In this document: positions 23,935 to 26,458 of the stretch, piece after piece
How positions within the stretch are numbered: the first letter of the stretch is position 1
How the letters are laid out: every line of letters starts with the position of its first letter
From: Methylotenera sp.
GTDB lineage: Bacteria > Pseudomonadota > Gammaproteobacteria > Burkholderiales > Methylophilaceae
Direction of reading: 5' to 3'
Length of the DNA stretch: 64,000 bases
Assembly (NCBI GenBank): GCA_046598525.1
Contig: JBKJIJ010000021.1
Coordinates: 7,142 to 71,141 of the forward strand
Made by a program: the position numbers and the translations under genes
Notes under the pieces: model-generated
What the model was told of the DNA's origin: nothing
What the model saw: the letters and a program-made list of their open reading frames with translations, nothing else
The model's database searches: none

Positions 23935-23937
23935 ATT

Positions 23938-24045
23938 GTCACTCTGCCGCAGGGCAGAATCTAGGCCTAGTACTATTCACGAATTTTTCAATTGAAATAT
24001 AGCTAGTATTCACCTTGTCAGGATTCTGGCCTGCGCCAGAATGAC
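23938..24045. repeat. Inverted doublet of REP-like (CGTC-type) palindromes between convergent yihA and trmB
   Basis: GTCACTCTGCC-GCAG-GGCAGAATCTA (23938-23963) and AGGATTCTGGC-CTGC-GCCAGAATGAC (24020-24045). Confidence 0.8.
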
Positions 24046-24049
24046 AATC

Positions 24050-24772
24050 TTAAATACGCGTAAATACTAAATCCCATACACCGTGGCCTAATTTAATACC
24101 GCGATTTTCAAATTTGGTTAACGGTCTGTAAGCTGGTTTTTCAGCATAATCTATCGCCGTATTTTTTAATTGCGGCTCAGCCTTTAGCGCGTCTAGCACC
24201 CATTCCGCGTACTCTTGCCAGTCAGTTGCCACATGAATGTAAGCACCCACTTTCAATTTGGTACAAAGCAGCTTTAAAAACTCGGCTTGAATCAAGCGGC
24301 GCTTATGATGGCGTTTTTTATGCCAAGGGTCTGGGAAAAAGATATGTACGCCATCTAAACTATTATCTGCAATCATCTGTTGTAGCACTTCCACCACGTC
24401 ATGCTGGATGATGCGAATATTCTGGATGCTGGATTCTTCAATCAGCTTTAGCAAACTACCAACGCCTGGCGTGTGCACTTCTACCGCCACAAAATCGCAA
24501 TCCTGCAAGGTTTGCGCGATTTTGGCGGTGCTTTCACCCATGCCAAATCCAATTTCTAGGATTTTTTTGCTATTAGGCCTAGCAAATACTTGATTCAAAT
24601 CCAGTAAATTTTCGGCATATTCAATGCCAAATTGTGGCCAAACCGTTTCTAGCGCATGCGCCTGGCCTTTAGTTAAACGGCCCTGACGCAACACAAAGCT
24701 GCGAATACGGCGGTTCATATGTGCGTTTGGCACATCGTTTTCAGGTGTTTCTGTTTTAATTAAATCGGTCAT
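24050..24772 (-). CDS. trmB: tRNA (guanine-N7)-methyltransferase
   Basis: RIRSFVLRQGR, LEIGFGMG, FFPDPWHKKRHHKRR, TKFENRG; own ATG at 24772. Confidence 0.95.
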   Translation of the reverse strand: MTDLIKTETPENDVPNAHMNRRIRSFVLRQGRLTKGQAHALETVWPQFGIEYAENLLDLNQVFARPNSKKILEIGFGMGESTAKIAQTLQDCDFVAVEVHTPGVGSLLKLIEESSIQNIRIIQHDVVEVLQQMIADNSLDGVHIFFPDPWHKKRHHKRRLIQAEFLKLLCTKLKVGAYIHVATDWQEYAEWVLDALKAEPQLKNTAIDYAEKPAYRPLTKFENRGIKLGHGVWDLVFTRI

Positions 24773-25228
24773 GGCAAGATTATACTTGATTCCCCTCTCC
24801 CGCCTGTGGGAGAGGGCTAGGGAGAGGGATAAATTATTTATTATGTGCTGTCGAATGTCTTCAAGCACGCCCTCTAGCTCGCTCAGCACCTGATTATTCC
24901 AAAATCGCAATACTCGAAAACCTTGGCTCTCAAGAAACTGGGTTCGTTTTGTGTCATACAGTGATTGAATTGCATGCTGACCACCGTCCAACTCGATAAT
25001 CAACATTTGCTCTATGCATATAAAATCCGCTATGTATGGACCAATCGGCTTTTGACGCTTAAATTTTAGATTTAAAAATCTACTGGCGCGTAATCGATAC
25101 CAAAGCTGCTTTTCTGCATCCGTTTGATTACGGCGTAATAACTTTGCATTGTTTAATATCTGGTTCAATTGCAACCCTCTCTCTAACTCTCTCCCTGCAA
25201 GGGAGAGAGGATTTGGTGCATCTTGCAT
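24050..25228 (-). CDS. DUF559 (Vsr-like) endonuclease domain read in frame into TrmB (392-aa ORF)
   Basis: LRRNQTDAEKQLWYRLR, FKRQKPIGPYIADF, IELDGGQH, GFRVLRFWN; no stop before trmB. Confidence 0.75.
   Translation of the reverse strand: MQDAPNPLSLAGRELERGLQLNQILNNAKLLRRNQTDAEKQLWYRLRASRFLNLKFKRQKPIGPYIADFICIEQMLIIELDGGQHAIQSLYDTKRTQFLESQGFRVLRFWNNQVLSELEGVLEDIRQHIINNLSLSLALSHRRERGIKYNLAMTDLIKTETPENDVPNAHMNRRIRSFVLRQGRLTKGQAHALETVWPQFGIEYAENLLDLNQVFARPNSKKILEIGFGMGESTAKIAQTLQDCDFVAVEVHTPGVGSLLKLIEESSIQNIRIIQHDVVEVLQQMIADNSLDGVHIFFPDPWHKKRHHKRRLIQAEFLKLLCTKLKVGAYIHVATDWQEYAEWVLDALKAEPQLKNTAIDYAEKPAYRPLTKFENRGIKLGHGVWDLVFTRI
24792..25210. mobile_element. Candidate small mobile unit: DUF559 nuclease flanked by inverted CCCTCTCCC/GGGAGAGGG palindromes
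   Basis: Flanks 24792-24828 and 25175-25210 share a hairpin + YTA + third 9-mer architecture in inverted orientation; mobility itself is inferred. Confidence 0.55.
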
Positions 25229-26458
25229 TTACAGCATATGCGCTTTATCGCCGCTTTTAAAACCGATTAATGGCGCATCAAAATTTTTGCTTAACGCTAT
25301 TACCTTAAACAATTCACCCATTTCGGCGGGGGATAATAGTTTTTGCGCGGCGGCGGCCATTGGTGTGTATGCCGCCATATCGCTGGGTGAAGTTTCACTT
25401 AATATTTCTAACAAGCCGCAATTCATTAAAAAGCTGGCTTGATTGCAATAGCCGGCCAAATTTAAGTTTTGCGAAACGCCAGCCTGTGCAATCGCTGTAA
25501 AATTGACATGGGCGGTAATATCTTGCAGGCCTACATAAACTAGCGGATTGCTATGTGCGTAATGTTGGTAATGACACATCAGCGTGCCTGTATTGCGTTG
25601 AGCGTGATAATACTCGGCGGCACCAAAACCATAATCAATCATCAAAATTACGCCCTGCTTTAAACTGGCAGCCAAGCTATGAATTAAACCTGTTGCGGCT
25701 GGGCAAAATTCGGTTAAATAATCGATTGGCAGTGAGTGCGCGCTTACTTCTTCATTTAATTTTCCTGCAGCCATTGGCTTATCTTGCCAAATAAAATTCT
25801 CTTCAAAACCCACACCGCGTTCAATTAAACCTTGTTGCGTGTTGCCTACAAGGTGCACAGCAATCGCGTCTAATACTTCATTGCCAATGATTAAACCGAC
25901 AAAATCTGCTGGCAACGCATCTAGCCAAACAATGCGCGAAAATAAATCGCTGGGCAATTTTCGCAAGTTTTCTAGCTGTATCTGGCGTAAGTAATCGCTC
26001 ACTTCTAAAATATAATAATGCGCAGGTAGTTGCTGTAATCGCTGCAATTCAAGCAGTAAATCGGCGGCCAATTTGCCTGTGCCAGCGCCTAATTCTAAAA
26101 TGTCGCCTTGGATTTTACTTGAAATTTGGGCTTCGCTTGAAATTTTGGCTTCACTTGAAACTTGAATTTCGCTTAAAACCTGCGCCACTTGCCTTGCTAA
26201 AGTGCGCGCAAACAGCGGCGAAATTTGTGGTGCGGTAACAAAATCACCGCCGCCATTTTGATTATCGGCGAACTTAACCGCGCCGCCGCTGTAATATCCT
26301 AGGGCGGGCGTATATAAAGCCATCTGCATAAAGCTGGCGAAATCTATCCAGCCACCGGCTTGTTCAATTTTTTGCTGAATTATTCGGCATAACTGCTGGC
26401 TGCGATTTTGTGCCGCTTGGTCAGGAATGGGTAGATTTAGATGTAATGTTGAGGCCAT
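25229..26458 (-). CDS. Class I SAM-dependent methyltransferase (MidA/NDUFAF7-like)
   Basis: GYYSGG, DFVTAP, LELGAGTG, DYG, QDITAHVNF, EMGELFKV. Confidence 0.9.
   Translation of the reverse strand: MASTLHLNLPIPDQAAQNRSQQLCRIIQQKIEQAGGWIDFASFMQMALYTPALGYYSGGAVKFADNQNGGGDFVTAPQISPLFARTLARQVAQVLSEIQVSSEAKISSEAQISSKIQGDILELGAGTGKLAADLLLELQRLQQLPAHYYILEVSDYLRQIQLENLRKLPSDLFSRIVWLDALPADFVGLIIGNEVLDAIAVHLVGNTQQGLIERGVGFEENFIWQDKPMAAGKLNEEVSAHSLPIDYLTEFCPAATGLIHSLAASLKQGVILMIDYGFGAAEYYHAQRNTGTLMCHYQHYAHSNPLVYVGLQDITAHVNFTAIAQAGVSQNLNLAGYCNQASFLMNCGLLEILSETSPSDMAAYTPMAAAAQKLLSPAEMGELFKVIALSKNFDAPLIGFKSGDKAHML

Follow-up and report, generated by a model that had tools for sequence, protein, structure and literature searches.

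The DNA described here is a 64,000-nucleotide stretch of a Methylotenera sp. contig (JBKJIJ010000021.1; hereafter, the window). Between a gene for a Methyltransf_28 S-adenosylmethionine (SAM)-dependent methyltransferase and trmB, it carries a compact unit in which a small DUF559 nuclease gene is enclosed by two inverted copies of a purine/pyrimidine motif (Table 1). We describe the architecture of this unit, its presence and absence at one conserved host site, and the association of its flanking motif with DUF559 genes across phyla.

Architecture of the unit

Positions 24792 to 24828 of the plus strand read C-CCCTCTCCC-GCCTGT-GGGAGAGGG-CTA-GGGAGAGGG, and positions 25175 to 25210 of the same strand read CCCTCTCTC-TAA-CTCTCTCCC-TGCAA-GGGAGAGAG-G. 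Each motif consists of a pyrimidine arm (Y), a loop, a purine arm (R1), a spacer, and a third arm (R2). Matches to GGGAGAGGG with at most one mismatch number six in the window, and all six are the arms of the unit; the shuffled window gives 2.2 scattered matches, and 1 of 100 shuffles gets to six. Pyrimidine/purine hairpins with 8-nt arms occur twice in the whole window, at the two ends of the unit. Folded as single-stranded DNA, each end gives about −10 to −11 kcal/mol (z = −2.7 to −3.8).

The plus strand from 24793 to 24828 fits the TMECO pattern of Holder et al. (CCCTCNCCC N3-6 GGGNGAGGG N3 GGGNGAGGG; PMC4666352) with 0 mismatches, and the minus strand from 25175 to 25209 fits it with three mutually compensating substitutions, as an AT-shifted variant. 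Judged by their sequence, the flanks of the unit are the already published Escherichia coli BoxC/PIT/TMECO intrastrand-triplex motif (PIT, potential intrastrand triplex) and no new palindrome, which the original prediction, made from the window alone, had overlooked. BoxC was reportedly described by Bachellier et al. in the 1990s, and the PIT elements by Hoyne and Maher in 2000 and 2002. TMECO, E. coli BoxC (1990s), and Hoyne and Maher's "potential intrastrand triplex" elements are one and the same; a census counted 3610 copies in 262 proteobacterial genomes, 23 of them in strain MG1655 with five inverted pairs among them (PMC4666352). The E. coli consensus motif forms a triplex in vitro by circular dichroism and nuclear magnetic resonance, blocks DNA polymerase in vitro, and is associated with variable loci in E. 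coli; its authors stated explicitly that neither a transposase nor an integrase nor any other mobility function lies near it, and did not mention DUF559 or ycjD (PMC4666352).

The two copies in the window differ in their arms (CCCTCTCCC / GGGAGAGGG / GGGAGAGGG in the 3' copy versus CTCTCTCCC / GGGAGAGAG / GAGAGAGGG in the 5' copy). The compensatory stem change noted in the original prediction is real, though it involves three positions and not two: a C>T change in the Y arm, the paired G>A change in the purine arm, and a G>A change at the mirror position of the third arm, so that both the Watson-Crick pair and the base triplet are kept. In the 5' copy, R2 (GAGAGAGGG) is the exact mirror of R1 (GGGAGAGAG).

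Mirror symmetry was scored across 80 related loci, which supplied 92 motif ends. In 22 ends, the purine arm is its own mirror and uninformative; in the other 71, the third arm is better explained as a mirror of the purine arm in 50, as a direct repeat in 2, and equally well as either in 19. There are 29 distinct arm combinations, among them GGGGGAAGG with GGATGGGGG, GGGGGAGGA with AGGAGGGGG, and AGGGGAGGG with GGGAGGGGA. The most frequent departure from an exact mirror is A>T (13 of 37), with which a T.A:T triplet is still possible. Such symmetry is the requirement of an antiparallel purine-motif third strand, and not of a protein dimer, an alternative hairpin, or a G-quadruplex. As a single strand, the motif should be able to fold into a hairpin with the third arm in its groove (a Y:R*R triplex). 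RNA reportedly forms no purine-motif triplexes (PMC4666352, introduction), and the mirror constraint therefore seems to act on DNA.

Other structures were considered for the same arms. The 3' copy and most family copies fit G3N3G3N3G3N3G3, and a G-quadruplex may form in such canonical copies but is not the best reading: the 5' copy in the window has two G3 runs only and yet stays mirrored, and a quadruplex needs no mirrored A positions. Pairing of the inner 9-mers with each other across the ORF (open reading frame), as suggested in the original prediction, is feasible on paper with one mismatch; the conserved relation is instead that of each inner 9-mer to the adjoining purine arm, as the mirror-repeat third strand of its own hairpin. 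An alternative hairpin that would hide the ribosome-binding site, with the Y arm against R2, has two mismatches in the 5' copy and is not favoured. In three related loci (L020, L022, and L082), a small GC hairpin (e.g., tgccccGAAGGGGc) replaces the 2- to 3-nt spacer before the third arm, giving the motif a second architecture.

The enclosed ORF matches Pfam PF04480 (DUF559; E = 7e-42, 142 bits, cut-off 20.6; domain at about 25159-24845), which bears out the DUF559 assignment made from the window alone; DUF559 and REase_MTES_1575 are the only Pfam matches of the protein. It aligns end to end with the NCBIfam YcjD model NF007294 at 124 bits, under the 218-bit equivalog cut-off, and by these scores we class it as a member of the DUF559/YcjD-like family that is no YcjD equivalog. 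The sole PDB match is 3HRL, an uncharacterised "endonuclease-like protein" of Neisseria gonorrhoeae (E = 6.5e-29). In an alignment of 20 homologues, D50, D63, and H67 are invariant and E61 is at least 90% conserved; the protein in the window has all four, within the core motif ...IADF...IIELDGGQH.... The DUF559 family is known to have a Vsr-like PD-(D/E)xK fold (PMC3424549, PMC1189080), and homologues carry the JGI label "very-short-patch-repair endonuclease."

Translation may begin at TTG 25168-25166 (likely) or at TTG 25174-25172, with an ATG further upstream at 25228-25226. The inner purine arm lies at the position of a ribosome-binding site, as its Shine-Dalgarno-like sequence had suggested: GAGAGAGGG is followed by TTG-CAA-TTG, and one homologue (P0002) begins at the second TTG. 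The window allele has no DUF559 stop codon. An extra TTAT after position 24833 is present in locus L001 and in three metagenome runs (X3, X5, and X7) and missing from the window allele and the identical allele of run X1. With TTAT, DUF559 stops as ...HIINK* ahead of the 3' motif; without it, the DUF559 frame crosses the stop-free 3' motif and a 19-nt spacer into trmB. The window allele thus predicts a DUF559-linker-TrmB fusion of about 370 to 390 amino acids, and the called ORF from 25228 to 24050 (minus strand, 392 amino acids) comprises a DUF559 domain (residues 24 to 128) followed by a complete TrmB (PF02390).

The unit is co-oriented with both host genes, the TAA stop of the Methyltransf_28 gene abuts the ATG at 25228, and the three are probably transcribed together. 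Terminator-like sites were not found at the unit, and promoter-like sites occur there at chance level. A search with PADLOC gave one marginal, partial match to DpdF (E = 8e-4, 15 bits), and the neighbours are housekeeping genes, so the unit was not taken for a defence system. Positions 24787-24831 (plus strand) match the Rfam family Antizyme_FSE at 28 bits, under the cut-off of 40, which we take to be a chance hairpin match.

Table 1. Positions of the DUF559 unit, its parts, and its host genes in the window, with the E. coli doublets for comparison
Feature	Position	Strand	Remarks
Whole DUF559 + triplex-motif unit	24792..25210	-	419 bp, between Methyltransf_28 gene and trmB
5' triplex motif (TM)	25175..25210	-	C, Y arm, loop, R1, spacer, R2
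5' TM Y arm	25209-25201	-	CTCTCTCCC (minus-strand reading)
5' TM loop	25200-25196	-	TTGCA (minus-strand reading)
5' TM purine arm R1	25195-25187	-	GGGAGAGAG (minus-strand reading)
5' TM spacer	25186-25184	-	TTA (minus-strand reading)
5' TM third arm R2	25183-25175	-	GAGAGAGGG; exact mirror of R1; Shine-Dalgarno-like
3' triplex motif, inverted	24792..24828	-	Plus strand has the exact published TMECO pattern
3' TM third arm	24828-24820	-	CCCTCTCCC (minus-strand reading)
3' TM spacer	24819-24817	-	TAG (minus-strand reading)
3' TM Y arm	24816-24808	-	CCCTCTCCC (minus-strand reading)
3' TM loop	24807-24802	-	ACAGGC (minus-strand reading)
3' TM purine arm	24801-24793	-	GGGAGAGGG, then G at 24792 (minus-strand reading)
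DUF559 (YcjD-like, Vsr-fold PD-(D/E)xK) nuclease coding region	24829..25174	-	PF04480 match
ATT adjoining unit	24789..24791		Second ATT at 25211-25213; probably no target-site duplication
4-nt polymorphism site	24833..24834		Extra TTAT after 24833 in other samples
trmB, tRNA (guanine-N7) methyltransferase	24050..24772	-	Downstream host gene; PF02390; TrmB-named homologues
Methyltransf_28 SAM-dependent methyltransferase	25229..26458	-	Upstream host gene; PF02636, E = 2e-56
E. coli K-12 BoxC doublets (L091-L094)	164.5, 624.6, 3046.0, 3239.6 kb		Inward-facing

Filled and empty alleles

Homologues of TrmB place the host in Methylophilaceae, near Methylotenera and Methylophilus. The order SDR (short-chain dehydrogenase/reductase), Methyltransf_28, trmB, engB, cytochrome c, ResB is common to the window and four groups of relatives (TrmB 95%, 91%, 88%, and 87% identical), in which 26 to 34 nt separate the Methyltransf_28 stop from the trmB ATG; this spacer holds no repeat traces in any of the four groups. 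The filled site reads, on the minus strand, ...CACCAAAT / CCTCTCTCCC...GGGAGAGGGG / AATCAAGTATAAT... (slashes at the unit edges), and empty sites read ...CACAATTTAAGTATAAT... or ...GCTAAATTCAGTATAAT.... Comparison of the two defines the insert as 24792-25210 (419 bp), exactly the coordinates of the original prediction, whose sequence architecture and discrete insert between the Methyltransf_28 gene and trmB are confirmed; the empty site that it proposed to look for was found both in relatives and in the same metagenome.

Public metagenome contigs from four runs (X1, X3, X5, and X7) were aligned to the region. Run X7 holds both alleles: the filled contig has a depth of 29, and the joint of 24773 to 25228 (a 32-nt empty-site spacer) has a depth of 31. 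In run X3, the depth is 19 across the unit versus mostly 60 to 200 on the flanks; some X3 contigs match the 36-nt motif alone and then continue into unrelated sequence, so that the motif also occurs in other contexts within that community.

The same spacer is filled in a more distant Methylotenera sp. metagenome-assembled genome (MAG; locus L010, 2940-3505), whose TrmB and Methyltransf_28 proteins are 78% and 56% identical to those of the window. Identity is 73% for the DUF559 protein; the 5' motif hardly differs from that of the window, and the 3' motif has a higher GC content. L010 also has extra motifs, one truncated and one a full copy of the window-type 5' motif directly ahead of trmB, and its site represents a hot spot or else an insertion that is old and rearranged. 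The unit was either gained at the spacer of about 33 nt between Methyltransf_28 and trmB or precisely lost from it by the relatives.

The ATT on both outer sides of the unit had been put forward as a possible 3-bp target duplication. As a feature of the family this does not hold up: of 38 other two-motif units, 24 have no flanking direct repeat, 12 have one of a single nucleotide, and 2 have one of 2 nt. By eye, no insertion-site consensus is apparent in the flanks of the units compared.

Between trmB and engB, three relatives (L002, 4281-4721; L005, 4257-4796; L008, 4247-4864) have an ORF of 146 to 205 amino acids with no Pfam match, at a place where the window (23935-24049) has only about 115 nt.

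Association across phyla

Among about 5.8 billion proteins searched, homologues number in the thousands. The DUF559 family has 25,344 clusters at 50% identity with E <= 1e-3 and 12,010 with E <= 1e-10. A DUF559 alignment was also scanned against one genome per species, which gave more than 590 loci, and the best 80 (50 to 73% amino acid identity) were analysed. These come from Alpha-, Beta-, Gamma-, and Deltaproteobacteria, Planctomycetota, Dehalococcoidia, Nitrospirota, Binatia, Dadabacteria, a candidate phyla radiation (CPR) genome, and a Syntrophomonadaceae MAG.

Under a strict test (published TMECO pattern, expected orientation, within 150 nt of the gene), the motif is present upstream in 45/79 loci, downstream in 46/77, and on both sides in 37/76, with a background elsewhere in the loci of 0.09 per kb. 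A looser test (8-nt pyrimidine arm, complementary purine arm, loop of at most 10 nt) found a hairpin upstream in 63/76 loci, downstream in 64/76, and on both sides in 59/76, against 1.7% of 175-nt background windows and 0.4% in shuffled sequence. The co-occurrence across genomes that the original prediction had named as a check is thus borne out, and to judge from these loci, DUF559 is tied strongly and specifically to this repeat across phyla.

Between loci of unrelated genomes, DNA similarity is limited to the unit. The median alignment is about 418 bp, and the offsets of alignment ends from the outer motif edges have medians of −1.5 nt on the 5' side and +2 nt on the 3' side; the unit itself has a median length of 426 bp (range, 391 to 603). 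The units of a Thiobacillus and a deltaproteobacterial MAG, for example, are 78% identical over 423 bp. Gene-less motif doublets also occur near DUF559 loci. The family is essentially chromosomal: 46 of 72,556 plasmid records carry it, mostly chromids or mislabelled chromosomes, as do 3 of 50,697 phage records.

Where an upstream motif is present, the first in-frame start follows the third arm mostly at 0 to 30 nt (median, about 10), a spacing that fits a G-rich third arm doubling as a ribosome-binding site. The nearest long upstream ORF is co-oriented with DUF559 in 45 of 58 loci (L010-L089, by a crude ORF-based count), which suggests that such units lie preferentially at the 3' ends of genes running in the same direction. 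The ORF passes through the 3' motif before a stop in 33 of 47 loci. Pure purine/pyrimidine tracts can hold no stop in any frame on either strand, so that read-through is the default, and many long fusion and tandem-domain ORFs among the cluster representatives follow from it. Translated motifs appear as tails on homologues, at the N terminus as SPLPLAGEGLGERV or SPLPLAGEG... and at the C terminus as LSPSPSPASGRGE or LSPTPLPQAGEG. Tailed or fused calls include P0017-P0110 and P0241, P0244, P0248, and others, e.g., one of 377 amino acids with three DUF559 stretches.

E. coli ycjD and BoxC copies

YcjD, the one DUF559 protein of E. coli K-12, belongs to the subfamily of the window nuclease. Its coding sequence ends ...RRSPSP* within a CCCTCTCCC arm (L090, 5030-5850; NC_000913.3, about 1351030-1351850). 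This arm is followed by an apparently degenerate hairpin and by sequence reminiscent of the 3' end of a second DUF559 copy, and TMECO no. 9 comes about 170 nt past the ycjD stop; the 5' side of ycjD has no motif. By simple arithmetic (18 TMECO loci in 4.64 Mb), the chance of a TMECO within 200 nt of a given gene is about 0.2%. Four of the five inverted pairs in MG1655 are doublets of 85 to 100 bp with third arms inward and mutually related spacers of 16 to 29 nt, and the fifth (L095) faces outward. The inward BoxC doublets have the topology of the DUF559 unit minus the gene, and look like derivatives resembling MITEs (miniature inverted-repeat transposable elements) or REPINs.

TMECO counts differ among strains: 19 to 30 in K-12, B, HS, 55989, IAI1, E24377A, W, O104:H4, and APEC O78; 11 in O157:H7; 6 to 15 in 042, UMN026, IAI39, and SMS-3-5; and 1 to 2 in CFT073, UTI89, IHE3034, S88, APEC O1, UM146, LF82, JJ1886, and ABU 83972 (PMC4666352). 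The ycjD gene was found in 3378 of 5426 complete E. coli genomes. We take the strains with 19 to 30 copies to belong to phylogroups A, B1, and C, those with 6 to 15 to D, E, and F, and those with 1 to 2 to B2. According to one report (PMC12817139), phylogroups A, B1, and C conserve ycjD, and in B2 and some others eefRABCD takes its place. TMECO numbers are thus very low in lineages reported without ycjD and high where it is reported present, a suggestive correspondence.

Discussion

We consider the segment to be one copy of a compact, widespread selfish unit, a YcjD-like DUF559 nuclease of about 110 amino acids between inverted BoxC/PIT/TMECO motifs, and give this reading a probability of about 60%. 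About 420 bp long and sharply delimited, the unit is found at a conserved host site in some alleles and missing from it in others; its edges are at the outer motif ends, it has an intact nuclease gene and no target-site duplication, and both the motif architecture and its mirror covariation are conserved across phyla. The mirror covariation in these sequences points to a folded DNA state. The nuclease would recognise the folded ends (hairpin plus third strand) and nick them at the outer boundary or close to it, leaving excision or copying to be finished by the replication or repair of the host; its targets might be its own unit, in cis, and gene-less single or doublet motifs such as E. coli BoxC, in trans. 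We infer that the nuclease itself moves the unit, and by analogy the nearest mechanistic parallels would be RAYTs (REP-associated tyrosine transposases) with their REP (repetitive extragenic palindrome) and REPIN repeats, followed by the structure-guided, duplication-free IS200/IS605 insertion sequences (IS). The broader proposal that YcjD-like DUF559 nucleases are the missing partners of BoxC/PIT/TMECO, and that together they form a new class of mobile element with triplex- or hairpin-recognised ends, an approximately 110-amino-acid Vsr-fold nuclease as sole protein, and gene-less BoxC singlets and doublets as non-autonomous derivatives, is held more tentatively, at a little short of an even chance.

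Known systems share parts of this layout. BoxC/PIT/TMECO copies occur in E. coli as inverted pairs with third arms inward, as do the window flanks, which are this motif; they were published as gene-less intergenic repeats, whereas the pair in the window has a nuclease gene inside it, as is the rule throughout a large DUF559 subfamily. The REP/REPIN-RAYT system ("REPtron"; PMC3116915, PMC3337134, PMC8049555), to which the original prediction likened the unit, offers an analogy that holds well: a small nuclease-type gene between inverted structured repeats, dispersed gene-less inverted doublets, a single gene copy in E. coli, no target duplication, and repeat numbers that are very low in lineages reported without the gene. 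The enzymes differ (Vsr-type PD-(D/E)xK here, the HUH/Y1 transposase fold in RAYTs), as do the repeats, which are mirror-plus-inverted purine/pyrimidine tracts able to form triplexes in the one case and plain GC-rich hairpins in the other. RAYTs are mostly vertical, whereas the DUF559 unit looks horizontally mobile, with presence/absence at one site and cross-phylum homology islands of about 420 bp. Having no HUH/Y1 domain, the unit is REPtron-like in layout and not a REPtron by membership.

With IS200/IS605 the unit shares very small size, insertion without target duplication, and, under the proposed mechanism, ends recognised as folded DNA, but the ends of IS200/IS605 are same-strand hairpins, not inverted, and its Y1 HUH transposase works through covalent intermediates. 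We know of no such chemistry for DUF559. The inverted ends notwithstanding, the lack of a transposase domain and of a consistent duplication sets the unit apart from a classical IS or DDE transposon. The Vsr very-short-patch repair endonuclease belongs to the same fold superfamily; the window gene has no adjoining cytosine methyltransferase gene, its product matches Pfam DUF559 and not Vsr, and nothing ties it to T:G mismatch repair.

Vsr-fold homing endonucleases (I-Bth0305I/EDxHD; PMC3239194, PMC2677866) are a precedent for this fold driving the selfish spread of a small free-standing gene, and suggest a rival explanation in which such an enzyme cuts an empty motif or doublet and repair copies the gene in through motif arms of about 36 bp, the motifs being landing pads and not transposon ends. 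We regard this as unlikely. Vsr-fold nucleases are established homing endonucleases (I-Bth0305I, PMC3239194; "fractured genes," PMC2677866), target duplication is absent, gene-less inward doublets that might serve as targets exist in E. coli and near DUF559 loci, and diverged copies fill this one Methylotenera site in two genomes, with additional motifs present. The known enzymes, however, reside in introns, inteins, or "fractured genes" without flanking inverted repeats, and the window nuclease was not found to belong to the I-Bth0305I/EDxHD family at the sequence level, where 3HRL was the only PDB match. Moreover, the empty sites of the window's relatives lack any motif, so that this insertion was not into an existing doublet; 36-bp arms are short for RecA-dependent repair; and the spread of single motifs would be left unexplained. 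Of like low probability is a nuclease that belongs to the host side or hitch-hikes, with motifs spreading by replication slippage, template switching, or some unknown enzyme, and DUF559 either a structure-specific repair nuclease that relieves triplex stalling or a passively carried gene, without mobilisation. The motifs do block DNA polymerase in vitro and mark variable E. coli loci (PMC4666352), Vsr, for its part, is a nuclease of DNA repair, the single ycjD of E. coli occupies a fixed locus, and the gene is rare on plasmids and phages (46/72,556 and 3/50,697). A repair gene, however, needs no base-pair-precise bracketing by inverted motifs in 59/76 loci across phyla, nor would one expect homology between unrelated genomes to end exactly at motif edges or clean-block presence/absence at a conserved site.

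It is considerably less probable still that the motifs serve expression or insulation, acting on the transcript or the transcription of the enclosed gene (Shine-Dalgarno-like third arm, mRNA-stabilising hairpins, terminators) in a module moved by ordinary horizontal transfer and illegitimate recombination. REP-like hairpins can, as general knowledge has it, stabilise mRNA; the third arm lies 0 to 30 nt ahead of the first in-frame start in most loci, and the co-oriented upstream neighbour in 45/58 loci suggests read-through expression. The conserved relation of the third arm, however, is mirror symmetry and not complementarity, and serves a purine-motif triplex of the kind reported absent in RNA, and PIT elements show no promoter or terminator activity in E. 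coli (PMC4666352). The unit in the window has no terminator-like site, and a role in RNA leaves the opposite-strand motif at the far end unexplained. An invertible switch, with the inverted motifs as crossover sites for programmed inversion relative to outside promoters, is very improbable. Predicted programmed-inversion targets show a 14-fold enrichment of "DUF559 domain-containing protein" (PMC9881135), which is expected from called ORFs that run through both inverted motifs, and we think that, uncommented there, it is an unrecognised echo of motifs overlapping called ORFs. No recombinase gene lies nearby, the four metagenome runs show no strand-changing joints, and orientation is constant in the syntenic pairs L030/L077, L013/L019, L031/L039, and L044/L056 and between the window and L010.

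Several points weigh against a selfish unit moved by its own nuclease. To our knowledge, no DUF559 activity has ever been measured, and none on these motifs has been demonstrated; nor do we know of a strand-joining route for a PD-(D/E)xK nuclease alone. About a fifth of DUF559 loci have no detectable motif on one or both sides, and the 64-kb window has no further motif copy and hence no sign of spread within the genome. With L010 also filled, the polymorphism could stem not from recent transposition but from losses after an old insertion or from flanking-gene recombination. The E. coli correlation comes down to a few phylogroup-level events confounded by phylogeny, and is suggestive and no statistical test. 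In vivo footprinting in E. coli gave no protection of the motif (PMC4666352).

No paper linking DUF559 to BoxC/PIT/TMECO was found in the literature searched, where most subscription-journal papers were absent and a prior description is possible; the window copy seems an ordinary member of a class apparently not described as such before. That class is a variant of the "structured repeat plus partner nuclease" kind and, if the link between enzyme and motif is real, may be a new class of mobile element. In practical terms, gene callers yield spurious tails and fusion ORFs around such units, of which the DUF559-TrmB frame in the window is one example. The association makes DUF559 the first candidate partner enzyme for the long-known and unexplained BoxC repeat. 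It gives DUF559, a very large family whose structure is solved and which is not known to have a role, and the repeat as well, a testable function, and the test can be made in E. coli K-12 itself, with ycjD against its 23 TMECO copies. Should the nuclease act on the folded ends, nature would offer an example of a protein that reads a DNA triplex, and of a mobile-element chemistry unlike that of DDE, HUH, serine, or tyrosine recombinases.

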